Shown here piece after piece: positions 9,428 through 61,482 of a stretch of 64,000 bases of DNA. A program made the translations under genes and the position numbers. The notes under the pieces were generated by a model. It had not been told where the DNA came from. It was given only the letters and a program-made list of their open reading frames with translations, and did not search any database. The number at the start of each line of letters is the position of its first letter. The stretch's first letter is position 1. The stretch is from an uncultured cyanobacterium (lineage in GTDB: Bacteria; Cyanobacteriota; Cyanobacteriia; Cyanobacteriales; CAWUOF01). Where the stretch lies: positions 4,096,001 through 4,160,000 of the forward strand of contig CAVUSO010000001.1 of NCBI GenBank assembly GCA_963744145.1, in the 5' to 3' direction.

Positions 9428-11422
9428 ATGGAACAATTATCTTTACCTTTAGTTTTTGCCAATACATTACCAGAGCAATTAATATGGTTCAAGGAAATAT
9501 TAGCCTTTCTGAATATTAATCCTAATCTTAATTGGCCCGATGCTTTTGGATTATCGTTGCGTAACTACTTTACTAAAAGTAACTATACACCCATTAAAAC
9601 TTTAAGTTTATTTACAGGAGGAGGGGGACTTGATATCGCTTTCCATGATGCTGGTTTTGATATTGTGCAAATGGTAGAGTTAGAAGCTAAATATATTCAA
9701 ACTCTTTTAAAAAATTCTCAGCCAGGAAGATTGTTAGAAAATTCTCAGCCTATTTGCATTGATATTAGAGAGTATTTTCCCAATTCTGAACTAGCAATAG
9801 ACTTTATCATTGGCGGACCACCATGTCAAACTTTTTCCGCTGCGGGCAGAAGAGCGTCAGGTGTTGCTGGACTTAGTGATACTAGAGGAATGCTATTTGC
9901 AGAATATGTTCGCTTAATCAAAATACTGCAACCAAAAGGATTTCTTTTTGAAAATGTTTATGGTATAACTGGTGCTGAAAATGGCGAAGCCTGGAAAAAA
10001 ATCCAAAATGCTTTTAAACAAGCAGGATACCAAATTAATTTTCGCGTTTTAGATGCAGCAGATTACGGAGTACCACAACATCGAGAACGTTTATTTATTG
10101 TCGGAATTAAAGAAGGTAATTATTTATTTCCCTCTCCTACTCATGGTCCTGATTCACCAGGACAAATACCTTTTTATTCAGCTGGAGCAGCAGTTATTGG
10201 TGCTGATCCATCGGACGCAGAATTAGGAATTAGTGGGAGGTATGGATATTTGCTCAATGATATACCACCAGGACTTAATTATAGCTTTTACACAGCAGAG
10301 ATGGGGCACCCTCAGCCTGTATTTAGTTGGCGTTCTAAATTTTCTGATTTTCTTTATAAAGCTGATCCAGAGCTTCCAGTTCGGACAATTAAAGCCCAAG
10401 GTGGACAATACACTGGTCCTTTTAGTTGGGAAAATCGTCGTTTTACAATTGCGGAATTAAAGCGTCTACAAACGTTTCCTGATGCTTATGAAATTGTTGG
10501 TAATCGTTCTAGCTGTATCGAACAAATTGGTAATTCAGTTCCACCACAATTAGGGAGGATTTTAGCTCTGAGTATTTTGGAGCAAGTCATGAATATATCT
10601 CTCCCATTTTCCATGCACTATTTACCACCAACAAAACAGTTAGGATTTCGACAACGCAAACGTCAATTAACTCAGAGATATGCTCAAAAAGCTCAAGCTG
10701 CGATCGCCTTCTTGAAAAGTAATGGTAAATTCAGTTCATCCGCTTCCCCTCATCCGAGATTATCAGAAAAATCTGTACGGTTTTTATCTGAAAATTTTGC
10801 TTGGAGTAAAAATGAAACTTGCCTGAGTACCAAAATTTTTCTGAAGTATGATTTTCAACCAGAAAGCTGGATAATTGAAGCTAATCTTAATGATATTTGG
10901 GAGATTGAAGGTAAATATATAATTGATATTTCATCAGCTAATGGTTGTGAAAATTGGGGTTTAGATACAACCCAAGTAAAATTAATAGCTAGGGATTTAG
11001 ATGGGCGAATTTTTACAGCTTTATGGAAAGCATTCGAGGAAAAATTAACTGAATTGACTCGCAAAGCTGATTTAGTACAATTATCTGGTTATTACCAATA
11101 TAAACCGCATCTAAATAGCAAAATGACAATTAATGATCAATTAAAGAATGACAAATTTTGGCAAATCATTCAATGTCTAATTAATGGAATAGGAGTAGCA
11201 AATCAATTATCTAAACAGCAGCTTGCTTTTCTTTGGGGAGTTAATAATAATGAAATATTTTCCTATTTAAAAAGATTAAGAATTATGGGTTACGAAATTA
11301 GGAATCATCAGACAAATCCTCAGATTAATCCGGGAGAATATTTAATTCCTTATGCTTTTCCGACGCTAACACCCAAAAGTGTGCAATTACGAAAAACCTT
11401 GGGAGAAAATGATGATGAGTGA
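9428..11422 (+). CDS. DNA (cytosine-5) methyltransferase with long C-terminal extension
   Basis: LFTGGGG (motif I), GGPPCQTFS (IV), ENV (VI), QHRER (VIII), RLQTFP (IX), QIGNSV (X). Confidence 0.92.
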   Translation: MEQLSLPLVFANTLPEQLIWFKEILAFLNINPNLNWPDAFGLSLRNYFTKSNYTPIKTLSLFTGGGGLDIAFHDAGFDIVQMVELEAKYIQTLLKNSQPGRLLENSQPICIDIREYFPNSELAIDFIIGGPPCQTFSAAGRRASGVAGLSDTRGMLFAEYVRLIKILQPKGFLFENVYGITGAENGEAWKKIQNAFKQAGYQINFRVLDAADYGVPQHRERLFIVGIKEGNYLFPSPTHGPDSPGQIPFYSAGAAVIGADPSDAELGISGRYGYLLNDIPPGLNYSFYTAEMGHPQPVFSWRSKFSDFLYKADPELPVRTIKAQGGQYTGPFSWENRRFTIAELKRLQTFPDAYEIVGNRSSCIEQIGNSVPPQLGRILALSILEQVMNISLPFSMHYLPPTKQLGFRQRKRQLTQRYAQKAQAAIAFLKSNGKFSSSASPHPRLSEKSVRFLSENFAWSKNETCLSTKIFLKYDFQPESWIIEANLNDIWEIEGKYIIDISSANGCENWGLDTTQVKLIARDLDGRIFTALWKAFEEKLTELTRKADLVQLSGYYQYKPHLNSKMTINDQLKNDKFWQIIQCLINGIGVANQLSKQQLAFLWGVNNNEIFSYLKRLRIMGYEIRNHQTNPQINPGEYLIPYAFPTLTPKSVQLRKTLGENDDE

Positions 11423-12734
11423 AATACATTTGCGTGTATTTAAAAATCGAAGTGAGTTAGTGCGATCTGATGGAACAACACAGGTTTTCTTAGAGGGTAG
11501 CATGAATGAAGCAGCAAAAGCTAGATATCAAAAAATAGCTAATGAATTATCAAATAGTTATCTCGAAAAGCAAATCATGATTTGTTATGAGCATCCTGCT
11601 GATCTAGTTTTTTCTCAATTAAAAGAGAATCATATAAATATTTTGACTAGACTGGTAAATTCAGTTACAAGTGAAGTTGGTAGAGCCATAGTTGGGTTAA
11701 CTATTTTGCAATTATCGGTGAAATCAATTGAACCTATGCAAAGTATTAGGTTGCACAAAGGTAGTTCTAGCGTAACAGCTTTTTCATGGTGTGATGGAAT
11801 ATCAATGCGTTCTTTAGATAAGCAATATATCACTCCTATTTTACGAAAATATGACTTACTTAGACTGAATGCGGATGGTTTTATGATGACTCGCAGTTTA
11901 GCAGAAAACTATCCTTATTCACCAGTGTATAAAGCTAATATTAAAGGTGCGCGTCAAGAGTGGCTAAATCTTGTAGAATATATAGAAGTTAATGAAATTG
12001 ATCCTAAATTAGCTTTACATTACATTTTATCTCAATTACTGAATCGAGCAAATGTGTTTAAAATTTTATCTGAACAAACTATCTTATCTCTACAAACATT
12101 TTTAGAGCTAACTAAATCTTGTTTAAATAGAGAATATGCTACTCAATTGATCACAACACATATTAATGAATCCAATTATGCAGCGCGAATTATGGAAATT
12201 GCTATGCACAGTCTGATGCAAACTATGCAAGAATATATGATTTTTTTACCGGGAGAATTACAATCTTTATCTCAAATGCGATCGGCTAATAAAAAACATG
12301 GTAATATTGGAGATATCGAAATCTTAGAAAATGGACAAATTGTTGAAGTATGGGATGCAAAATATGGCAAAAGTTATTTAAGAGATGAACTAGAAGAGTT
12401 AAACGATAAACTTGGTTCTCACCCAAGTGTTTTATTAGCTGGTTTTGTTACGAGTGTTGAACCTGAACGACGTGAAGAGCTAATCCCTCGCTGTCAAGAA
12501 ATAGCAGATTTTTTTGGGATTACAATAGAAATAGTTACTTTTAGAGAATGGATACAACAGCAATTTCAACGAGCAATTAAATCTGAGTTAGTCAACGAGC
12601 AACAATTAGCACAGAAATGGTTAATTGCTTACACAGAATCATTAGCCCAAAAACGTCGAGATATTGCTCCTATTGACGAACCTTGTCAACAATGGTTAAC
12701 TACTTTAAAGCTTTTACTTGAAACTTATAAATAA
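11409..12734 (+). CDS. Putative type II restriction endonuclease (PD-(D/E)xK-like)
   Basis: Overlaps the MTase stop; GDIEILENGQIVEVWDAK resembles a catalytic motif; specificity not determinable. Confidence 0.65.
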   Translation: MMMSEIHLRVFKNRSELVRSDGTTQVFLEGSMNEAAKARYQKIANELSNSYLEKQIMICYEHPADLVFSQLKENHINILTRLVNSVTSEVGRAIVGLTILQLSVKSIEPMQSIRLHKGSSSVTAFSWCDGISMRSLDKQYITPILRKYDLLRLNADGFMMTRSLAENYPYSPVYKANIKGARQEWLNLVEYIEVNEIDPKLALHYILSQLLNRANVFKILSEQTILSLQTFLELTKSCLNREYATQLITTHINESNYAARIMEIAMHSLMQTMQEYMIFLPGELQSLSQMRSANKKHGNIGDIEILENGQIVEVWDAKYGKSYLRDELEELNDKLGSHPSVLLAGFVTSVEPERREELIPRCQEIADFFGITIEIVTFREWIQQQFQRAIKSELVNEQQLAQKWLIAYTESLAQKRRDIAPIDEPCQQWLTTLKLLLETYK

Positions 12735-12923
12735 TTCAAATATTACTCCTATTTAAGCATCTTGCTAAATCTGTTTGACTATGGAAAGATGTCTTTTAAG
12801 AGACTGGTTAAGTTATGGGCTTCAGAGTGAGGGCCAAAAGCGCGATCGCTAGCTAGTAAATTTTTTCCCTGATGGTGAAACCCCTACTATAAACTCAAGT
12901 TCCAGTTTTTGATCCAAATAATT

Positions 12924-12954
12924 GCGATCGCTTACCCAATAGATAGGATAATTC
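12924..12954 (+). repeat. 31-bp direct repeat, copy 1 (begins with HIP1)
   Basis: gcgatcgcttacccaatagataggataattc; 29/31 identical to 14775-14805. Confidence 0.9.
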
Positions 12955-12964
12955 TAATTTAAAA

Positions 12965-13813
12965 ATGCTTGTAACTGACATGATAAATTTTTTAGGTAAA
13001 CCCTACTTTCAAGCACCCAATTGCTTGATTTATCAGATGGATTGCTTAGAGGCAATGTTAAAGCTACCAAATGAATGTATTAATCTTACTGTCACCAGTC
13101 CTCCGTATAATATTGGCAAAGAATACGAAAAAATAATGCTACTAGATCAATATTTAAAATGGTGTGAAAAGTGGATAAGTGAGATTTACCGAATTACCTC
13201 TTCTCAAGGAGCTTTTTGGCTAAACTTGGGTTATTTATCAATTCCTAATAGAGCTAAAGCAATTCCTATTCCTTACCTACTGTGGGACAAAATTTCTTTT
13301 TACCTCATTCAGGAAGTAATCTGGCACTATGGTGCTGGAGTTGCTGCCAGTAAGTTTTTTTCACCACGTAATGAAAAGTTTCTTTGGTATGTCAAAAACC
13401 AAGAAAGTTATACCTTTAACTTAGATGATGTGCGCGATCCTAATGTCAAATATCCTCATCAAAAAAAGAATGGCAAAATTAAAGTCAACCCCCAAGGCAA
13501 AAATCCGACAGATGTTTGGGATTTTCCCAAAGTAACATCTGGTCAAAACAGATCGTCGAAAGAGCGTACTGATCACCCTGCTCAATTTCCTAGGGCTGTT
13601 ATAGAACGTATTATCAAGGCTTCATCCCATCGAAATGAAATTATTTTAGACCCTTTTCTGGGTTCAGGAACTACTGCGGTTGTTGCTTTAGATTTGCAGC
13701 GTACTATCATTGGATTTGAGATTTGTAAAAGCTACTGTGATATAGCTGCTAATAGAATTGATGATTTTCTCAGACAAAAACAGCTTAGTGAAGCTCAATT
13801 ATCTTTATTTTAG
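12965..13813 (+). CDS. Beta-class amino DNA methyltransferase (probably N4-cytosine), partner of the ScaI-like REase
   Basis: TSPPY precedes HPAQFP and DPFLGSGTT. Confidence 0.92.
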   Translation: MLVTDMINFLGKPYFQAPNCLIYQMDCLEAMLKLPNECINLTVTSPPYNIGKEYEKIMLLDQYLKWCEKWISEIYRITSSQGAFWLNLGYLSIPNRAKAIPIPYLLWDKISFYLIQEVIWHYGAGVAASKFFSPRNEKFLWYVKNQESYTFNLDDVRDPNVKYPHQKKNGKIKVNPQGKNPTDVWDFPKVTSGQNRSSKERTDHPAQFPRAVIERIIKASSHRNEIILDPFLGSGTTAVVALDLQRTIIGFEICKSYCDIAANRIDDFLRQKQLSEAQLSLF

Positions 13814-16398: not shown

Positions 16399-17637
16399 TT
16401 AAGGTAAGGGCGTATTGCTATACGCCCCTTCAGGGGATGAATCGCGCCAAAGCTTTTTTCTTAAAGGGTTCGTCAGCAACCCACTACCCACTCGCTCAAC
16501 AATAGAGTCTGTGGCTACTTTTGATTTTCTAATGATATTAGCCGCACCGTTAACATCTGCATTCAGAATTAATCCTTGAGCAGAACGATACAAACCTCTT
16601 TTTATCCTTTTTCCAGATGGTTGCCAATTGTCAGGTTTTTCGCCGACTGTCACTGGCAATAAATCTCGGTCTAAGAAACTGGATTTTGATGTGTAAGATT
16701 CGTCTTGTTCTATGAATCGCCATCCCCTTAGATCGCATTCTTGCTGTAGTCTCTCCTTGACTTTGGCTGTGGGGATTTGGTAGGGGCGTATTGCAATACG
16801 CCCGTACTGATTGGTTACTCTTCCCATATTAACTTCTTGTTTCTGTCCTTTATTCCAACCAAAGACGATCACATTGATTTGATGATTTTCGCAGTATTTT
16901 ATGATAGTTCTCACCGCTTTATTCACTGCATCTCTCATCCTTCTAGCGCGAGTTTCTGACAACTGTTGTAGCCGTTTTGATGAAAAACCTTTGGGTAATT
17001 TAGCTTGAGAGTGCCTGGTTTGGATTCGGGCTTTTTCTTGGTTAAACAGTTGATTCCAAGACTTGATTTTGCGACCATCAATGATGAATGGTTTGCCATT
17101 ACTAGAAACACAAGTTAACCAGTTGTTTATCCCATGATCTATTCCTAGAATTCCTGTTACTCCTAAGCTACAACTAAGTGCTTGTTTGGTCAGAGATTCA
17201 TGGACATATTCAACCCAGACATCACCATTTCTGGGGATTAGCCTGAGTTCTTTAATTTGGCAATCTCTCAATCTTTCCGGCCATGTCAACCACAGGGCAT
17301 CAGTTCCGAAATGTTCTTTGCCTTTAGTCCCTAGAGGTAATCTCACCCGATTGTCAACTATTTTTAGAGCTTGTCCTGGATAGGAAATTTGATATTTGCC
17401 GCCCTTAACTCTGTATTTAGGTAGTCTTGGCTTTTGGTTAAGTTTTCCTGTCTTGGCTAACTTTTCCAGGGCTAGAAAAGAACTAAAGGATTCTGCTACA
17501 GACTTAAGAGTTTGTTGTGCCACTTGAGAGTAAAGAAAACCGTAATTTTCGTTAGTTTTTGCCATCTTGTACAGCTCAAGATACTTAATTACTTTTTGAT
17601 CTTTAAAGTACCGTTTGTCTTTTTGGACTGCGTACAT
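16399..17637 (-). CDS. tnpB: TnpB RNA-guided nuclease (probably degenerate)
   Basis: MYAVQK start; SQVAQQTL, PRLPKY, GIDHGINN, VFGWNKGQKQ, DESYTSKSSFLD, GKRIKRGLY and NADVNGAANI motifs. Confidence 0.88.
   Translation of the reverse strand: MYAVQKDKRYFKDQKVIKYLELYKMAKTNENYGFLYSQVAQQTLKSVAESFSSFLALEKLAKTGKLNQKPRLPKYRVKGGKYQISYPGQALKIVDNRVRLPLGTKGKEHFGTDALWLTWPERLRDCQIKELRLIPRNGDVWVEYVHESLTKQALSCSLGVTGILGIDHGINNWLTCVSSNGKPFIIDGRKIKSWNQLFNQEKARIQTRHSQAKLPKGFSSKRLQQLSETRARRMRDAVNKAVRTIIKYCENHQINVIVFGWNKGQKQEVNMGRVTNQYGRIAIRPYQIPTAKVKERLQQECDLRGWRFIEQDESYTSKSSFLDRDLLPVTVGEKPDNWQPSGKRIKRGLYRSAQGLILNADVNGAANIIRKSKVATDSIVERVGSGLLTNPLRKKLWRDSSPEGAYSNTPLP
16780..16807. repeat. REP-like palindrome inside the tnpB coding sequence
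   Basis: gtaggggcgtattgcaatacgcccgtac; near-identical hairpin at 16404-16430. Confidence 0.8.
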
Positions 17638-17657
17638 AAGATTTTTGTTAACTACTA

Positions 17658-19237
17658 AGTAGTCGGACAAAAGTAATAGGTACTGTATTAACTTTTGTAA
17701 AACGTATGGGTCAAGCAATAAGCTGGACAAAGTCATCGAAAAATTAGTCCAATCTGGGGAAGATTGGCCAAAGAAGTGGCTGGACAATGGGAGCAAAAAA
17801 TTAGACTTATTTTGGTAATTAAGGGGATAAGTGAGGTCGATTTTAGCTTCAAAAAAAACACCCTGATTGTGAAATAATTATAGAGCTAACTTAAAAGTTT
17901 GAAGAAAATGTCATCTCCTCCTTTGAGAATATTTTTAACATCTGCGGAAAATCAAACCTTATGGGAATTAAATAGAGCCGAGGGAGTTCCACTAAGAACA
18001 AGAGATCGGGCTGCGGCCTTGAGATTATCATCAATGGGATGGAAAGTGGAACAGATCGGCAAGTATCTGAACTGGTCAATTAAGACAGTGAGAGCCACAA
18101 TACATCGTTGGGAAAAACAGGGATTAGCAGGATTATGGGATGCGCCTCGTCCGGGCAGGAAAAGAAAATGGAGTCAGGCAGATTTGGCAGAAATTGAAAA
18201 AAAACTAGAGACAGAGGAACGAGCTTATAATAGTCGTCAGTTAGTGAAATATCTAGCCCAGGAAAGGCAAGTAAAACTGAGCCAAAGACAGTTGCGTCGA
18301 ATCCTCAAAAAAAACTATCGGTGGAAAAGAACGAGAACATCTCTAAAAGGAAAGCAAGACCAGGAAAAAAGAGCAACTAAAAGAAATGATTTAGAGATGT
18401 TGGAATTCGCGGCAGCCGCGGGTGAAATATGTTTAAAATATTTGGATGAATCAGGATTTAGCCTGTGGGCTGAACCTGTATATACCTGGGGGAAAATCGG
18501 CCAACAGAAACAGATCAAACAGCCTAAAAAGAAAGGGAAAAGATTAAATATATGTGGATTTTTGGCCGTGGGAGAAAGCTTTGAATATGGATTAAGTTTT
18601 AAGAGTTTTGACAGTAAGAATTATATCAAATTAATGGATTGGCAAGCCGCGCAAGCGGAAACTAGATTGAAAGAAACGGGCAAAATAACTGTAATTGTCC
18701 AAGACCAATATTCCGTTCACGTAAGTAAATTGACGAAGAGCAACTATGATCAATGGGAAAAACAAGGATTATATATATTCCTATTATCCAGTTACTCTCC
18801 CGAATTAAATCTGATTGAAACGGAGTGGGAAAGAATCAAAGAAGATGAATTAGCTGGTCAAATGTTTGAGAATGAATATGAATTAACCATCGCGGTAAGA
18901 GCAGCAATCGAAGCTCGTCAAACTAGTAAGGGCTTAGAAGTAAAAAGATTTAGATTTGGTGGTCAGCCTAGCCAGGATGAACAAAAATCCTAATCGGGTT
19001 TATTCTAGTTCTAGTCAACCGGAAAAATTCCATTAATTGTTTAATGAGAGGCTGAGGCAAAACTGACCATATTTATAGTTAATAGAAAATCTGGAAATGC
19101 AGTTTTCTTACTCTCTAGTGAAACCTATTCAGTTGGACGGAGGGAATACTTTTATATGCTTTTCTCTGGTAAATTTGTGGGTCAAATTTACTCTTAAATA
19201 AAGTTAACATAGTTAACTTTATTTATGTCCGACTACT
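17658..19237 (+). mobile_element. IS630-family insertion sequence
   Basis: TIRs agtagtcggaca / tgtccgactact, TA duplication at 17656-57 and 19238-39, CTAG target. Confidence 0.92.
17908..18993 (+). CDS. IS630 transposase (HTH + DDE), single reading frame
   Basis: GLWDAPRPGR, YLDESGF, VQDQYSVH and YSPELNLIE motifs. Confidence 0.92.
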   Translation: MSSPPLRIFLTSAENQTLWELNRAEGVPLRTRDRAAALRLSSMGWKVEQIGKYLNWSIKTVRATIHRWEKQGLAGLWDAPRPGRKRKWSQADLAEIEKKLETEERAYNSRQLVKYLAQERQVKLSQRQLRRILKKNYRWKRTRTSLKGKQDQEKRATKRNDLEMLEFAAAAGEICLKYLDESGFSLWAEPVYTWGKIGQQKQIKQPKKKGKRLNICGFLAVGESFEYGLSFKSFDSKNYIKLMDWQAAQAETRLKETGKITVIVQDQYSVHVSKLTKSNYDQWEKQGLYIFLLSSYSPELNLIETEWERIKEDELAGQMFENEYELTIAVRAAIEARQTSKGLEVKRFRFGGQPSQDEQKS

Positions 19238-40453: not shown

Positions 40454-40617
40454 GGTTTGGATACTTATCTGTTTTACTAAACTTGGATTTTTAGACTAAC
40501 ATCAGTTTATTTTATTTTTCCAAAAGTAATCAATACAAGTGAGCGCAGAAATCAACAGTAGGTAATAATGATAAAAACTGGTTAGAGCTGGCTGTAATAT
40601 CACAATTGTCAAGTAAA

Positions 40618-41040
40618 ATGAGACAGAGTTTAATCATTGCCTTACTGCTGGGAGCGAATATGGCGATCGCGCCCATCGCTCAAGCAGACGACCCAACAGG
40701 GGGATATTTTGATGGAACCGAGATTCAATGTCCTGGTATACCGAGAGGCGAATCAAACGTTACGCAGTGTAACGAAGTGGCCTTTCAAAAGGCCGATATC
40801 GAGTTGAATGCGGTTTATCAACAGTTGATGAAACAAGCAGATGCAAAGGAACAGGAGTATTTACAGGAGATGCAATCGGCGTGGATTAAGCTCAAGGAAT
40901 CACAATGTGGTTTGACTCAATATTATTATCGTGATGCACGCTTCAGCGATAAGTGGGAATCTTCTTGTGAAGCCGTAATGACCATTCGCCGTGTGCAGGA
41001 GTTAAAAGCTTTGGGAACGGGAATTTCCTGGCAAAAATAA
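40618..41040 (+). CDS. Lysozyme inhibitor LprI (DUF1311) family protein
   Basis: Signal peptide; C...ADIELNAVYQQL...Q.AWIK.KESQC...C...MT.RR..EL pattern. Confidence 0.85.
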   Translation: MRQSLIIALLLGANMAIAPIAQADDPTGGYFDGTEIQCPGIPRGESNVTQCNEVAFQKADIELNAVYQQLMKQADAKEQEYLQEMQSAWIKLKESQCGLTQYYYRDARFSDKWESSCEAVMTIRRVQELKALGTGISWQK

Positions 41041-41205
41041 GAATGAGTTGAAATCGGATTAGTTAGAAACTGGATATTATCTCAAACTATTGAGCCTATC
41101 TGGTTTCAATTTCTACTAACAAAACTTCCTATTTACTCTTCGGCGATCGCACCCACCTAATAGCAAACAACCGATAAAATTAGTAATCAAAACACCTAAG
41201 TAAAT

Positions 41206-41475
41206 GCTATCCGCTAAACACTGGACATATCTGGACAACCAGTACATAAAGTGTAGAGATGGCCAGTCTCAGTCAATCGTCAAGCGAAAGACTACGTTAC
41301 TTGGGTCATGGCACCTACGAGTGCTTTCCAGCTTGTAGCTCTGCCGTTCAGTTTTAAACATTCCTATAAAGCTCAAGAAAGTGAACTGAGCCGAACAAGC
41401 CTAAGTAACATTGACGAGGAAACAATTACCATTCGACTACGCTCACGGCGAGCCTGAGCAATCAGAGTTTTAATT
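41206..41475 (+). ncRNA. omegaRNA / HEARO-like scaffold of IscB (boundaries approximate)
   Basis: Directly upstream of iscB; HEARO-like blocks CCAGTCTCAG, ACTACGTT, CACCTACGAGTGC-TTTCCA-GCTTGTAGCTCTG, TAAACA, AACATTGACGAGG and ATTACC; pairing gttacttggg/cctaagtaac. Confidence 0.75.
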
Positions 41476-41626
41476 ATGTCTAATGCAAGTTTTCGTGATC
41501 GACACCAACAAGCGCCCAATTAATCCTGTTCATCCAGCACAAGCACGGCTGTGGTTAACTCAGGGGAAAGCTGCTGTTTTTCGTCGGTTTCCTTTTACGA
41601 TCATCTTGAAAACTGGATCAACTGAT

Positions 41627-42772
41627 ACCAATTCTTGCAACTTTGACTACAGATAGTGTAGAGTATAATTTGAGTAGAGTTGAAGGAAAAATATGGCAGG
41701 AGTTTATCACCTAGACATTAAGGAAAGTGAAGCCGAGCTGAAGAAATTGCTCGCAGTGGAAAAAACTGGTCCAGGAAAAGAACGATTACAAGCATTATAT
41801 CTACTCAAGATAAACAAAGCTAAAACAGTCACAGAAGTTGCTGAAATCTTGGGCAGAAATCGAGTTACCGTTCAAGATTGGTTAGCCAAATACCGTCAAG
41901 GAGGATTGGCCAAATATCTGGGGAAAAAAGTGGGTACAGGCCGACCGAGAAAAATTCCTGACTGGGCGGTAAAAAGTTTAGAAAAACGACTAAATGAAGA
42001 GGAAGGATTTAATAGTTATGGGGAAATTTGTCAATGGCTATCATCCACCCTTGGGATAGAAGCTAAATATAAAACCGTTCATCAATTAGTGCATTATAAA
42101 CTAAAAGCCTCACCAAAAATCGCCAGGCCGAAAAGTACAGAACAGTCAAAAAAAAAGTTAGATAATTTTAGAAATCACTTGGCAGAGGACCTAGCTATGC
42201 TGAGTTGGTTTGCCATAACAGTAATGAGTTTAGGAGATAAAGTCAGATTTTTATGTCAAGATGAAACGCGGATCGGCATGAAAACGATTAGTGGGAGAAA
42301 AATTACCATTCGTGGGGTAAAACCAATTGGTAAAGTGCAGTGGAAATTTCAAGCGACTTATATTTATGGCGTAGTAGAGCCAAAGACAGGGGAACATTTC
42401 TTTTACGAGTTTACTCATCTCAATAGTCAATGCTTTCAGATATTTTTAGACTTAGTAGCCGCGCATTTTTCGGATAGTATTTTGATCATTCAGTTAGACA
42501 ATGGTGGTTTTCATAAAGCTAAAAAGTTGGTAATTCCTAAAAACGTTATTTTAATGTTTCAACCATCCCATTGTCCTGAATCAAATCCAATCGAACAGGT
42601 ATGGCAGTATCTCAAAAAGGGATTGAGATGGGAATTACCAAGAAACTTAGATGAATTAAGACTTTTAATTAGTAAAGAACTAGAAAAGATGAATTCAAAA
42701 GTAATTGCCTCAATTACGGGACGAGCCTATATATTAGAGGCACTATCTGTAGTCGGTATTTAGAGAATTGGT
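41627..42772 (+). mobile_element. IS630-family insertion sequence inside iscB
   Basis: Inverted ends (at)accaattct / agaattggt(at) enclosing a DDE transposase. Confidence 0.9.
41693..42763 (+). CDS. IS630 transposase
   Basis: HTH, GRPRKI, QDETRIG, LDNGGFH and CPESNPIEQVW motifs. Confidence 0.92.
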   Translation: MAGVYHLDIKESEAELKKLLAVEKTGPGKERLQALYLLKINKAKTVTEVAEILGRNRVTVQDWLAKYRQGGLAKYLGKKVGTGRPRKIPDWAVKSLEKRLNEEEGFNSYGEICQWLSSTLGIEAKYKTVHQLVHYKLKASPKIARPKSTEQSKKKLDNFRNHLAEDLAMLSWFAITVMSLGDKVRFLCQDETRIGMKTISGRKITIRGVKPIGKVQWKFQATYIYGVVEPKTGEHFFYEFTHLNSQCFQIFLDLVAAHFSDSILIIQLDNGGFHKAKKLVIPKNVILMFQPSHCPESNPIEQVWQYLKKGLRWELPRNLDELRLLISKELEKMNSKVIASITGRAYILEALSVVGI

Positions 42773-44004
42773 ATGAAATAACTAAACCAGTTCAGTTAAA
42801 AATAGATCCTGGCTCCAAAACTACGGGGATCGCATTAGTATCCGAGGATGCAGTTATTTGGGGTGCTGAATTAACCCATCGTGGTCAGGCAATTAAAGCT
42901 AGTCTTGAGTCTCGACGTTCACTGCGTCGTACTCGACGGAACCGCAAAACTCGTTACGCGCCAACCACGGTTTTTGAATAGAACTCATCCCAAAGGCTGG
43001 TTAGCCCCCAGTCTTGAACACCGAGTACAAACTACCCTAACCTGGGTAAATAAATTAAAGAAATTTGCACCAATTAGTTCTATTTCCCAAGAACTGGTCA
43101 GGTTTGATCTGCAACGGTTGGAAGATCCTGAAATATCGGGCATTGAGTACCAACAAGGAGAGCTACAAGGCTACGAAATTCGCGAATACTTACTGAACAA
43201 ATGGGGCAGAAGATGTGTTTATTGTGGTGCTGAAAACACGCCTTTAGAGATTGAACATATCTTAGCTAAAAGTAAAGGTGGAACAGATAGAGTTAACAAT
43301 CTTACCCTAGCTTGTCATACTTGTAATCAGAAAAAAGGTAATCAGTCAGTTGAGAAATTTCTCCACAACAAACCAGATGTTTTGAGACGGGTTCTAGCGC
43401 AAGCAAAAGCACCATTAAAAGACGCTGCGGCGGTCAACTCTACCCGATGGGCATTATTCAACCGACTCAAGGAAACCGGATTACCAGTTGAAACCGGAAC
43501 TGGTGGCAGAACCAAATTTAACCGCGTTAAGTTTGGGATTGAAAAGCGTCACTATCTAGATGCAGCCTGTGTGGGTGTGGTTGAAAAATTAACTTTGAAA
43601 ACTACTAAGCCCTTACTGATTACTGCTAAGGGTTGGGGAATGCGCCAAATGTCTACTACCAACCAATATGGTTTTCCCATCAAACACCGCACCAGACAGA
43701 AAGCTTTTTTTGGGTTTCAAACTGGGGATATAGTCCGCGCTATCCTACCGACTGGAAAATACGCTGGAACACATATCGGACGCTTAACTGTTCGCGCCAC
43801 AGGTGTGTTTGAAATGGTGACGGTAAAGGGGAAAGTTAGCCCTGTCAGAGCTAAATACTGCAAAATCCTGCATCGAGTTGATGGATACAATTATGCCGTG
43901 TAATCCACATTTGTCCACATATTCGGCGATTAGAGGTGATCCGATCGCACCAGCAAGTACGGGCGCAAGAGCAATACGCTCCTATGCGATCGCTATGAAA
44001 ACAT

Positions 44005-58430: not shown

Positions 58431-61400
58431 ATGAGTTCGGTACTCCAATCGTCAAATCGGGAAATCGTCACATCATCTACATCAGATTTATTTTTGCGCC
58501 ATCGACTCAAAGTTGTGGAGGACCTATGGGAATCGGTTCTCAGACAAGAGTGTGGTCAGGAATTAGTGGATCTGCTCAATCAATTGCGTGATTTAGGGTC
58601 ACCAGAAGGACAAGCTGCTCAATTTAAAGAATCTGAGGTCCGTCTAATTGTCGAAAAATTAGACCTGAATGCGGCTATCCGCGCTTCGAGGGCTTTTGCT
58701 CTATATTTCCAGCTGATCAATATTATTGAACAGCGTTACGAACAGCGTCATCAACACCAAGCCCAAACCAATATCAATAGCGCTAATTTTAATTTCTCCT
58801 CAGACAATACTTACCCAGAATTGTCGAGTCCAGGAGAAGTGGCCCAACCTGTGGTGCCTGGGGCGGATATGCTGGAAAAAACTCTGCAATCTAAACCCGC
58901 ATCGAAGCGACAGATGGGTACATTTCAATGGCTATTTCCCCACTTACGTCATCTAAATGTCCCACCACAACAAATCGAGCGGTTAATTAAAAATCTTGAT
59001 GTCCGCTTAGTGTTTACAGCTCACCCCACCGAAATTGTTCGTCATACTATTCGTGATAAGCAGCGTCGGATTGCGAAAATTTTACAGCAGCTCGATCAGG
59101 TCGAAGAAGAACTTCAGTCCGTGGGTTTGGTCTCTTCCTGGGAATCGATCGCTCTGGTTGAGCAGTTGACAGAAGAAATTCGGCTCTGGTGGCGCACTGA
59201 TGAACTCCATCAGTTTAAACCAACGGTACTCGATGAGGTAGATTATACCCTCCACTATTTCCAAGAGGTGCTGTTTGATGCTGTACCGAAGCTTTATCAG
59301 CGTCTGAAAGTGTCTCTTTACAATTCCTTTCCCTATCTCTCTCCCCCTCGCTATAATTTTTGTAAGTTTGGCTCTTGGGTTGGCTCCGATCGCGATGGTA
59401 ATCCCTCGGTTACCCCCCAAGTTACCTGGCAAACCGCTTGTTATCAACGTAATTTGGTCTTAGAAAAATACTGTCAGTCGGTGCGATCGCTGATTGAGTT
59501 GTTAAGTCTATCCCTCCACTGGAGTGATGTATTACCGGAATTGCTCGACTCCTTGGAACAAGATCGGGTCAAAATGCCTGAGATTTATGAAAAATTAGCA
59601 ATTCGTTATCGGCAAGAACCCTATCGGTTAAAGCTAGCTTACATCCTGAAGCGGTTGGAAAATACTCGCGATCGCAATTGGCGTTTTTACACGGGGGAAG
59701 TTCAGCAACGGGAACTAACAGAGACAGAACCAGTTTCGATTTATCAGACTGGCATTGAGTTTTTAACGGAGTTAGAACTAATTAAACGTACTCTGACCGA
59801 AACTGGTCTAAGTTGTAGTGATTTAGAAAATCTGATTTGTCAGGTCCAAATCTATGGTTTTAACTTAGCTCATTTAGATATTCGTCAAGAGTCTTCCCAC
59901 CATTCGGACGCTTTTAATGAAATTACTGAATACTTGCAAATTTTACCTCGTTCTTACAGTAATTTAAACGAGTCAGAGCGAGTTGAGTGGCTGGTGCAGG
60001 AACTCCAAACCAGAACGTCCTTTAATTCCGGCTGAATTACCTTTCTCGGCTAAAACTTGCGAGACGATTGAAACCTTGCGGATCGTGCGGCAGATGCAAC
60101 AAGAGTTTGGTCATGATCTCTGCCAAACTTATATTATCAGCATGAGCCATGATGTCAGTGATTTGCTGGAAGTATTGCTGTTAGCTAAGGAAGCTGGTCT
60201 TTATGATCCAGCGACAGGAGTTGGTACACTCCAAGTCGTACCTCTATTTGAAACGGTGGAAGACTTAAAACGTGCCCCAGAAGTCATGCAGGCTTTGTTT
60301 AAGTTACCTTTGTATCGGACTTTATTAGCTGGTAGCTACTCGACTGAATCTAAACCATTAACCTCTTTGTTTACTCCTAATTTACAAGAGGTGATGTTAG
60401 GTTATTCAGATAGCAATAAAGATTCTGGTTTTCTCAGTAGTAATTGGGAAATTCACAAAGCCCAAAAAGCTCTCCATGTCATTGCTGAATCTTATGGGAT
60501 CTCGTTACGCATCTTCCATGGACGTGGTGGGTCGGTGGGTCGAGGTGGCGGCCCAGCCTATGAGGCGATTTTAGCTCAACCAGGTCGCAGTATTAATGGT
60601 CGAGTCAAAATTACTGAACAGGGAGAGGTGTTGGCTTCTAAATATACTTTGCCAGATCTAGCTCTCTTTAATCTGGAAAGTATTACTACCGCAGTCATTC
60701 AAGCAAGTTTGCTGGGTAGTGGGTTTGATGATATCCAACCTTGGAATGAAATCATGGAGGAATTGTCGAACCGATCGCGTGTTCACTATCGGGCCCTGAT
60801 TTACGAACAGTCTGATTTTATCGATTTTTTCCATCAAGTTACTCCCATTGAAGAAATTAGCCAATTGCAAATTTCTTCTCGTCCGGCTCGTCGTCGTGGT
60901 GGTAAAAAAGATTTAACCAGTCTACGTGCTATTCCCTGGGTGTTTAGCTGGACCCAAACTCGCTTTTTGCTACCCGCTTGGTATGGTGTCGGTACTGCTC
61001 TCCAAGACTTTTTGGATCAGGAACCGGAAGAACACTTGAAGTTGTTACGTTATTTTTACTTAAAGTGGCCATTTTTCAAAATGGTCATTTCTAAGGTAGA
61101 AATGACTTTATCTAAGGTAGATTTGCAAATTGCTCACCACTATGTGTGCGAATTGTCCGCAGCCGAAGACCAAAACCGTTTTCAAGCTCTGTTTGAACAA
61201 ATTGCCCAAGAGTACCATCTGATCTGTGGTTTGGTCTTAAATATTACTGGGCATAAACGGCTGTTGGATGGAGACCCAGATCTACAGCGTTCTGTTCAGT
61301 TACGCAATGGGACAATTGTTCCCCTCGGATTGTTGCAGGTTTCTCTGTTAAAACGTTTGCGCTATTATGGAGCCCATGCCAATCCTGGTGGGATTAATTC

Positions 61401-61482
61401 TCGTTATAGTCGCGGCGAGTTACTCCGTGGTGCTTTGCTGACAATTAATGGGATTGCCGCCGGAATGCGTAATACGGGTTAA
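58431..61482 (+). CDS. ppc: Phosphoenolpyruvate carboxylase; apparent +1 frameshift at about 60015 (likely sequence error)
   Basis: [44 protein letters not shown] and C-terminal MRNTG; removing one A restores LQTRRPLIP. Confidence 0.95.

Follow-up and report, generated by a model that had tools for sequence, protein, structure and literature searches.

Inverted repeat arrays and the HIP1 octamer at the ends of a cyanobacterial IscB subfamily

IscB, an RNA-guided nuclease considered ancestral to Cas9, has been described as cargo of IS200/IS605 elements. In such elements one short motif is recognised by both transposase and nuclease. The window analysed here, a stretch of 64,000 nucleotides from an uncultured cyanobacterium (contig CAVUSO010000001.1, positions 4,096,001 to 4,160,000), carries an IscB/omegaRNA element with short phased repeats at both of its ends, and the question raised by this locus is which kind of enzyme moves an element with such ends. 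The original prediction for this DNA was a non-autonomous element mobilised in trans by a serine recombinase that reads the repeats in double-stranded DNA (dsDNA). IscB/omegaRNA transposons themselves are known; what is new here is an IscB subfamily with a different end architecture and an 8-bp palindromic target.

Inverted motif pairs at both ends of a subfamily

A genome scan was performed with the C-terminal IscB fragment of the window as the query and one genome per species, which gave 273 candidate stretches with 219 relatives, and only the best 80 were carried forward. We found 13 relatives with the same ends as the window copy, all of them in other cyanobacteria, which gave 14 members in total: eleven from the genome scan (loci L001-L005, L008, L009, L025, L032, L044 and L073) and two on plasmids (L081 from Oscillatoria nigro-viridis PCC 7112 and L085 from Nostoc sp. 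C057), in addition to the window copy. The closest relative was L001 from Argonema antarcticum, with a protein identity of 81%. The iscB gene is intact in the 13 relatives, with open reading frames (ORFs) of 424-482 residues at the eleven genome-scan loci and annotated genes of 1293 bp at L081 and L085. At the eleven genome-scan loci the element measured 1549-1578 bp and carried iscB as its sole gene, so it is non-autonomous. A quick tree of 75 IscB rows placed 12 of the 13 subfamily rows in one clade (SH-aLRT 98); the remaining row, L073, adjoined this clade from outside on a long branch. Judged by these sequence comparisons, the window element is a member of a distinct cyanobacterial IscB subfamily.

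As evident from blastn searches with extended flanks and from nhmmer, the homology between the eleven genome-scan loci and the window starts exactly at 41206 (GCTATC) and stops at about 43947-43949. A hidden Markov model (HMM) built from the eleven members was matched from position 1 by these eleven alone; L029, L038 and L050 entered it at position 11-12 and the remaining loci at about 44-131. The body of the omegaRNA is therefore common, and its first ~55 nt are a separate, subfamily-specific module. The distant relatives (~55-65% protein identity) mostly had matching GC-rich hairpins of the IS605 type at both ends. In particular, many of the other 79 loci read GTCA(A/G)C and a GC-rich hairpin at the 5' (omegaRNA) end, and a like GC-rich hairpin followed by ATGA or ATGG at the 3' end. 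The subfamily has neither hairpin, and both the ~55 nt of its omegaRNA end and its whole distal end differ from those of the distant relatives. Its layout is that of a normal IscB element: the guide lies outside, the HEARO scaffold and iscB follow, and a target motif comes right after the distal end.

Both ends contain two TGGACAA-type motifs 10 bp apart, which corresponds to one helical turn, and the motifs are inverted between the ends. The omegaRNA end is composed of GCTATC, a short spacer, the two motifs and a closing GATAGC. The distal end is composed of TCCAC, 4-5 nt, TTGTCCA, ~10 variable nt, ATTAGAGG, ~5 nt and an invariant GATCG. The distance from the motif pair to the terminus is ~16 nt at one end and ~25 nt at the other. 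The ends share a subterminal inverted repeat of ~18 nt and a second, terminal one that is short and imperfect, and the HMM of each end matched the opposite end on the opposite strand in 6-8 loci. The exact arrangement GACAA-N5-GACAA was found 20 times in the 917,590 bp of the window and the loci, compared with ~2 expected, and 19 of these 20 were located at IscB ends; the window copy is not among them, as its first motif reads GACAT. The heptamer TGGACAA was mildly enriched overall (185 vs 125 expected).

Conservation of the motifs at both ends held across the 13 relatives, as did the boundaries: the homology starts at 41206 and stops at HIP1, with no canonical hairpin ends further out, and the empty sites of L085 described below agree. 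The motifs named in the original prediction (GCTATC, GATGGC, two CTGGACA and two TCCACAT) are all present at the positions that it gave. In contrast, the mirrored CCG and CGG that it noted beside them were not consistent across the family members.

The two ends differ in how they fold. At the omegaRNA-proximal end, the repeats sit in a nested arrangement of an outer helix, an inner helix and a hairpin, in which 88.7% of 221 cells were paired in the 14 members, compared with 20-43% in slid controls, and none of 500 shuffles reached this value. Compensatory changes were present in two pairs (CG in 7 and GC in 5 members; CG in 9 and GC in 3), and the outer helix GCTATC/GATAGC was kept in 14/14 members. 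The pair counts thus bear out the placing of the repeats inside the first omegaRNA helix, which the original prediction had described as a built-in binding array; the binding itself is predicted. Compared with the HEARO consensus, the outer helix reads GCUAUC/GAUAGC rather than GUCAAC/GUUGAC, and the variable GC-rich first hairpin is replaced by the inner helix, which encloses a GACAA-containing loop. At the distal end, the consensus structure from RNAalifold contained 0 pairs, and single-strand DNA folds revealed no common hairpin on either strand.

The motifs of the two ends vary independently around one consensus, as in L025, L081 and L085, which argues for a binding site over end-to-end pairing; base pairing between the ends was accordingly rejected as the cause of the inverted motif. 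It is improbable that the repeats act at the RNA level only, with the proximal pair as scaffold structure and the distal pair bound to the 5' part of the transcript or regulating expression, without bearing on mobilisation: the proximal repeats do lie in a helix-supported structure, the second of them is the conserved HEARO hairpin and the ends are complementary over ~18 nt, but changes at one end are uncompensated at the other, the second subfamily below keeps its arrays with different helices, and the ends must hold a feature for transposase recognition, for which no other common feature is evident.

This second subfamily (L029, L038 and L050) has another outer helix and retains GACAA arrays at both ends, with three phased GACAA copies at the distal ends of L029 and L038. 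Two of the three L029-type copies have GG in front of the omegaRNA-end terminus. The families L029/L038/L050, L043/L047 and L060/L061/L065 also lack GC-rich hairpin ends and have short distal ends with other phased short repeats and a final GGAG. A host start codon follows the element by a few bases in L038, L043, L047 and L060, and elements of this type seem to sit at, or supply, a ribosome-binding site.

No other cargo with the same ends was found when the end HMMs were run on all loci and the window and the ends were compared with plasmids by blastn; these searches gave IscB elements, one remnant and one intergenic motif pair only. The remnant (L040:8254-8285, Scytonema sp. NIES-4073) is a lone 32-nt proximal end with the terminus and both motifs, located beside gatB and ~1.2 kb from a canonical IscB element. 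The motif pair (L082:4005-4118, also L083 and L084) consists of two phased TGGACAA motifs in the dnaN/xisH-xisI intergenic region of Nostoc plasmids, followed ~80 bp on by an imperfect copy in inverse orientation, and has no IscB element and no GCTATC or HIP1 termini. The three instances are 97% identical there and count as one; the pair may have arisen as a miniature derivative, or a DNA-binding protein of host or plasmid origin may recognise it.

The HIP1 octamer at the insertion site

HIP1 is the most over-represented octamer of cyanobacterial genomes, and its function is still debated. When the L085 element and its flanks were searched against plasmids, seven homologous empty sites were found in Nostocaceae (L086-L091 and L093). 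In the occupied L085, the host flank is followed by GC-TATTC at one junction, and the other junction reads GTA-GC-GATCGC. In the empty sites, the same flank is followed directly by one octamer, which is HIP1 itself (GCGATCGC) in L089, L091 and L093, and otherwise GCGACCGC (L086 and L087), GCAATCGC (L088) or ACGACCGC (L090). The L085 element is thus inserted at the 5' edge of HIP1. The dinucleotide GC is present at both L085 junctions and once in the empty site; no target duplication beyond this ambiguous GC was found between L085 and the seven empty sites, and target-site duplication was rejected, as only these 2 nt are common to the junctions. The empty-site alleles expected in the original prediction thus exist, and the crossover dinucleotide that it sought in them would be GC, although this is not the GG of IS607. 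A search of the plasmid collection gave no empty sites for L081.

These empty sites indicate that the GATCG(C) after all 14 copies is target sequence outside the element. HIP1 is perfect in 9 of the 14 members, GATCG is present in 14/14 and GC before GATCG in 12/14, and the element itself starts with GC in 14/14. In the window, 60 copies of HIP1 were counted compared with 0.4 expected, and 1404 copies in 956,699 bp compared with about 19 expected. At that density the chance of HIP1 at a given position is ~0.0015, and the abundance of HIP1 therefore does not explain its placement. In the available part of the Meers 2023 preprint, the motif after the distal end of IscB elements is the target-adjacent motif (TAM); since this is so, HIP1 is likely the TAM of the subfamily as well as its insertion target. 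The left terminus also matches HIP1 at 5 of its first 7 positions. The window element would end at about 43940 and be followed by a degenerate HIP1, rather than end at 43935 as the original prediction had it; a role of the conserved GATCG(C) as HIP1 target and likely TAM was absent from that prediction.

An 18-nt stretch with CTGGACAAC, which lies shortly downstream of where the L085 element is inserted and has a HIP1 copy on either side, is inverted in L091 (~165-200) compared with L089 (~205-240), which suggests inversion between neighbouring HIP1 palindromes.

Which enzyme moves the subfamily

We consider that a dsDNA-type mechanism, a serine enzyme included, moves the subfamily, with a probability of about 0.45, slightly short of an even chance. 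A dsDNA-reading protein is favoured because one strand shows complementary motifs at the two ends and no common hairpin. The inverted, independently varying motifs would be candidate binding sites for such a protein supplied in trans. The best candidate class would be a serine recombinase acting in an IS607-like manner via a circular junction; this is the weakest step of the proposal, and the class is favoured because of the 2-nt common GC, the lack of target duplication and the phased subterminal repeats. Once the element has excised, the guide together with HIP1 would designate the empty site to be cut and re-copied, and the occupied site would escape cutting with GCTATCC instead of GCGATCG. 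The fullest version of the proposal, in which the clade swapped IS200/IS605 hairpin ends for dsDNA repeat-array ends served by an IS607-like or XisF-like serine recombinase and adopted HIP1 as insertion site and TAM, is tentative and, taken as a whole, rather doubtful. TATTC, which we take to be the crossover repeat of XisF, follows GC at the terminus of three members.

The published systems are compared here from the available parts of the cited sources. At IS607 ends, short direct repeats are phased and an imperfect inverted repeat is placed unequally far from the two termini; no target sequence is duplicated, and ends and target have a dinucleotide in common (Chen 2018, eLife, PMC6188088). 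The ends and targets of IS607 carry GG with little target specificity (Chen 2018; 2026 review). The subfamily is similar in having one dinucleotide at both junctions and once in the empty site, no target duplication, helically phased short direct repeats near the ends and an imperfect inverted repeat whose two halves are unequally distant from the termini; additionally, IS607 can carry an OMEGA nuclease (TnpB). The 2026 review assigns IscB to IS605 alone and TnpB to IS605 as well as IS607.

Several observations weigh against a dsDNA-type mechanism. Compared with IS607, the subfamily has IscB as its cargo, GC rather than GG at its junctions and termini, and as its target an 8-bp palindrome, far more specific than IS607 targets; a serine TnpA with an N-terminal DNA-binding domain was present neither in cis in the 14 copies nor nearby. 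No Y1 or resolvase Pfam domain was found in 71 neighbour ORFs at 11 loci, and no Y1 or serine transposase among 44 window ORFs scanned with NCBIfam or in the annotated plasmid neighbourhoods of L081 and L085. A crude motif screen of 1511 ORFs gave one resolvase-type protein, without the IS607 domain order, and no gene of the Y1 or IS607 type, although the zero for Y1 says little in view of the crude regular expression used. The pairing of the GCTATC terminus with GATAGC recalls that between guide and cleavage motif in IS605, and GATAGC resembles the target half GATCGC; both features fit a Y1 mechanism too. A weak bulged distal stem is possible (TTG.CC/GG.CAA), with 78.6% of 84 cells paired compared with 20-50% in slid controls. 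Finally, the empty sites come from one member, L085. The non-autonomous nature of the element that the original prediction proposed stands, with iscB alone at the 11 loci, but its serine recombinase is a candidate at most, one that fits the end anatomy but not the GC or the specific target. It had also looked to IS607 TnpA genes next to related iscB copies, and no transposase of any kind adjoins any of the 14. The canonical relatives are likewise without a nearby TnpA, so the missing neighbour is the rule for IscB elements and is uninformative about the enzyme.

It is unlikely, though it fits several of these observations, that the subfamily consists of ordinary IS200/IS605-type (ISC) elements that transpose in single-stranded form through a Y1 TnpA in trans whose hairpin specificity has drifted. 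The proximal hairpin and the weak distal bulged hairpin would then be the TnpA sites, and GATAGC and GATCGC, in the IS605 orientation, the cleavage motifs shown by base pairing. IscB elements are described as IS200/IS605 elements that Y1 TnpA mobilises, that duplicate no target sequence and that have the target motif beyond their distal end (Kapitonov 2016, PMC4810608; Meers 2023, preprint), and the subfamily likewise inserts beside a short specific motif without target duplication. Its distant relatives have IS605-type ends, the GCTATC/GATAGC helix of all 14 members resembles guide-to-cleavage-site pairing, GAT.GC is common to both cleavage motifs, and the bulged distal stem of 5-6 bp is possible in most members. 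However, IS200/IS605 elements have like imperfect hairpins at both ends on the same strand and no terminal inverted repeats; here no such pair of hairpins was found and a terminal inverted repeat is present, and the inverted end motif makes the two ends complementary, not alike, when a single strand is read. The distal stem does not resemble the proximal hairpin, was missed by RNAalifold and has almost no covariation, and 31-32 of 500 shuffles reach its paired percentage and covariation score. L002, L003 and L044 have other small distal stems, and the stem is weak in L001, L005, L073 and L085. Additionally, neither the Pfam scan of neighbour ORFs nor the crude motif screen gave a Y1 gene in any locus.

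It appears quite unlikely that the subfamily depends on another system tied to HIP1, in which a site-specific recombinase or nuclease of the host or a plasmid would work on HIP1-like sequences and a host DNA-binding accessory factor would occupy the TGGACAA pairs. We know of no HIP1-specific recombinase, which counts against it. In its favour, the HIP1-like GCTATCC bounds the element on the left and true HIP1 on the right, the inverted CTGGACAAC stretch lies between two HIP1 copies, and the motif pair without IscB on three Nostoc plasmids, with its inverted partner, adjoins xisH-xisI, whose products are accessory factors of the serine recombinase XisF in the available part of PMC4874684. On the other hand, these plasmid instances amount to one, nothing connects XisHI to the TGGACAA motif, and the enrichment of TGGACAA is only mild.

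Comparison with ISC elements, which have hairpin ends and 4-bp targets in the available part of Kapitonov 2016 (PMC4810608), revealed a generally similar organization with differences at the ends. As in ISC elements (Kapitonov 2016; Meers 2023), IscB stands alone, the HEARO omegaRNA extends over one end, its guide lies beyond the boundary, the iscB-distal end is directly followed by a specific target motif, there is no target-site duplication, the element is non-autonomous, and an upstream host gene lies on the same strand. In contrast, the subfamily has inverted pairs of a 7-nt motif at 10-bp spacing and a weak terminal inverted repeat instead of two like subterminal hairpins, the 8-bp HIP1 palindrome as its target instead of a 4-bp motif such as ATGA or GT|GG, and GC common to both junctions. 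The main text of Kapitonov 2016 makes no mention of HIP1 or GATCG; its supplements, with family consensus sequences and termini, could contain such a family. No description of IscB with IS607-type ends or with HIP1 was found in the literature searched, subscription papers and supplements excepted.

If a dsDNA-type mechanism is correct, the module of nuclease and guide would be able to exchange the partner that mobilises it, a switch that TnpB has made between IS605 and IS607, and the subfamily would provide the first IscB with a non-Y1 transposase. With HIP1 as insertion site and TAM, it would offer an IscB whose TAM is long and defined, and it would be the first case of a mobile element, and of an RNA-guided nuclease, associated with HIP1. 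The subfamily links HIP1 to a mobile element able to find about one target per kilobase.

The window copy and its surroundings

The coordinates of the window element are collected in Table 1. A HEARO-like scaffold upstream of iscB had been proposed, and the region was identified as an IscB omegaRNA by cmscan with Rfam, with a score of 111.2 bits against a gathering score of 83 (E 4.5e-22) over model positions 1-211 of 211. The match ends 54 nt before the iscB start at 41483, and unscored scaffold or leader spans this interval. In the alignment, GCTATC/GATGGC forms the HEARO outer helix, where the consensus reads GUCAac/guUGAC, the second CTGGACA falls on the conserved small hairpin of the model, and the pseudoknot region and the 3' domains are also taken in. 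The flank 5' of 41206 showed no conservation and differed between the copies, and the predicted guide 5' of this position fits the element boundary; the guide of IscB elements lies outside the boundary in the available part of the Meers 2023 preprint. The upstream gene (40606-41040) is on the same strand as the element. In L001, L003, L044 and L073, the element begins inside the last few codons of a same-strand upstream ORF, which is an aminotransferase gene in L001 and hypD in L003. Such starts in the 3' ends of ORFs fit transcription of the guide by read-through from the host gene.

Table 1. Features of the IscB/omegaRNA element in the window
Feature	Position	Strand	Basis or location
Predicted omegaRNA guide (16-20 nt of host flank)	41186..41205	+	abuts the 5' edge of the scaffold
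omegaRNA scaffold, HEARO (RF02033)	41206..41429	+	covariance-model match
omegaRNA-proximal transposon end	41206..41263	+	pair counts and homology start
Outer helix	41206-11/41258-63	+	proximal end
Inner helix	41219-22/41250-53	+	proximal end
Hairpin	41231-34/41239-42	+	proximal end
Two CTGGACA repeats	41221-27, 41231-37	+	proximal end
iscB N-terminal fragment (PLMP-like domain, PINP)	41483..41625	+	translation; aligns to the intact L001 gene
IS630-family insertion in iscB	41626..42773	+	terminal inverted repeats and transposase match
IS630 transposase ORF	41693-42763	+	NCBIfam transpos_IS630
iscB middle fragment (RuvC-I, IDPGS, Arg-rich bridge helix)	42775..42957	+	translation
iscB C-terminal fragment (RuvC-II, HNH, RuvC-III with HYLDA, TAM-interaction region)	42959..43903	+	translation
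iscB-distal transposon end	43904..43940	+	alignment of 14 members; boundary inferred from L085 empty sites
TCCACAT repeats	43904-10, 43914-20	+	distal end
TTGTCCA (reverse complement of TGGACAA)	43911-17	+	within the TCCACAT repeat stretch
Conserved ATTAGAGG block	43929-36	+	distal end
Target site and likely TAM, degenerate HIP1 CCGATCGC	43941..43948	.	alignment of 14 members

All parts of IscB are present in the window, as originally predicted, but the gene is broken by an IS630 insertion, which that prediction does not mention, and by a frameshift. The RuvC-I, RuvC-II, RuvC-III and HNH motifs are visible in the translated fragments and identify the IscB family. The C-terminal ORF matched guided_IscB (NF040563) of NCBIfam with 314.5 bits against a cutoff of 175, is 81% identical to L001 over residues 4-313 and ends with the stop codon TAA at 43901-43903. 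The inserted transposase belongs to the IS630 family by its NCBIfam match (211 bits against a cutoff of 100). The terminal inverted repeats of the insertion are 34 nt long and 79% complementary, and a direct TGA is present on both sides (41623-25 and 42774-76). Omission of IS630 and one TGA restored the iscB frame across that junction when compared with L001. One extra base (+1) is located near 42958-42960, as seen from a single-base gap against L001 at alignment column 335. The IS630 insert and this base were the only frame-breaking differences from the intact L001 gene, and the window copy has no single uninterrupted iscB reading frame. Read from these fragments, the window iscB is a pseudogene and this copy of the element is dead, because IS630 is inserted in the gene and a frameshift is present.

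Elsewhere in the window, a TnpB gene was found on the minus strand (16399-17796; guided_TnpB of NCBIfam, 131 bits), adjoining a second IS630-family transposase gene (17899-18993), and no TnpA was found nearby. This TnpB element was rejected as a bearer of like ends, as it has an ordinary hairpin after the gene and no arrays; three GGACAA copies upstream of it, with a spacing of ~57-60 nt, are probably due to chance. A DNA methyltransferase cluster at 9428-13810 contains a cytosine-5 type (9428-11419) and an adenine-specific type (12965-13810). Phosphoenolpyruvate carboxylase is split into two overlapping ORFs (58431-60032 and 59983-61479), which match positions 1-442 and 440-898 of one NCBIfam model, and a frameshift or sequencing error is therefore indicated near 59983-60032.

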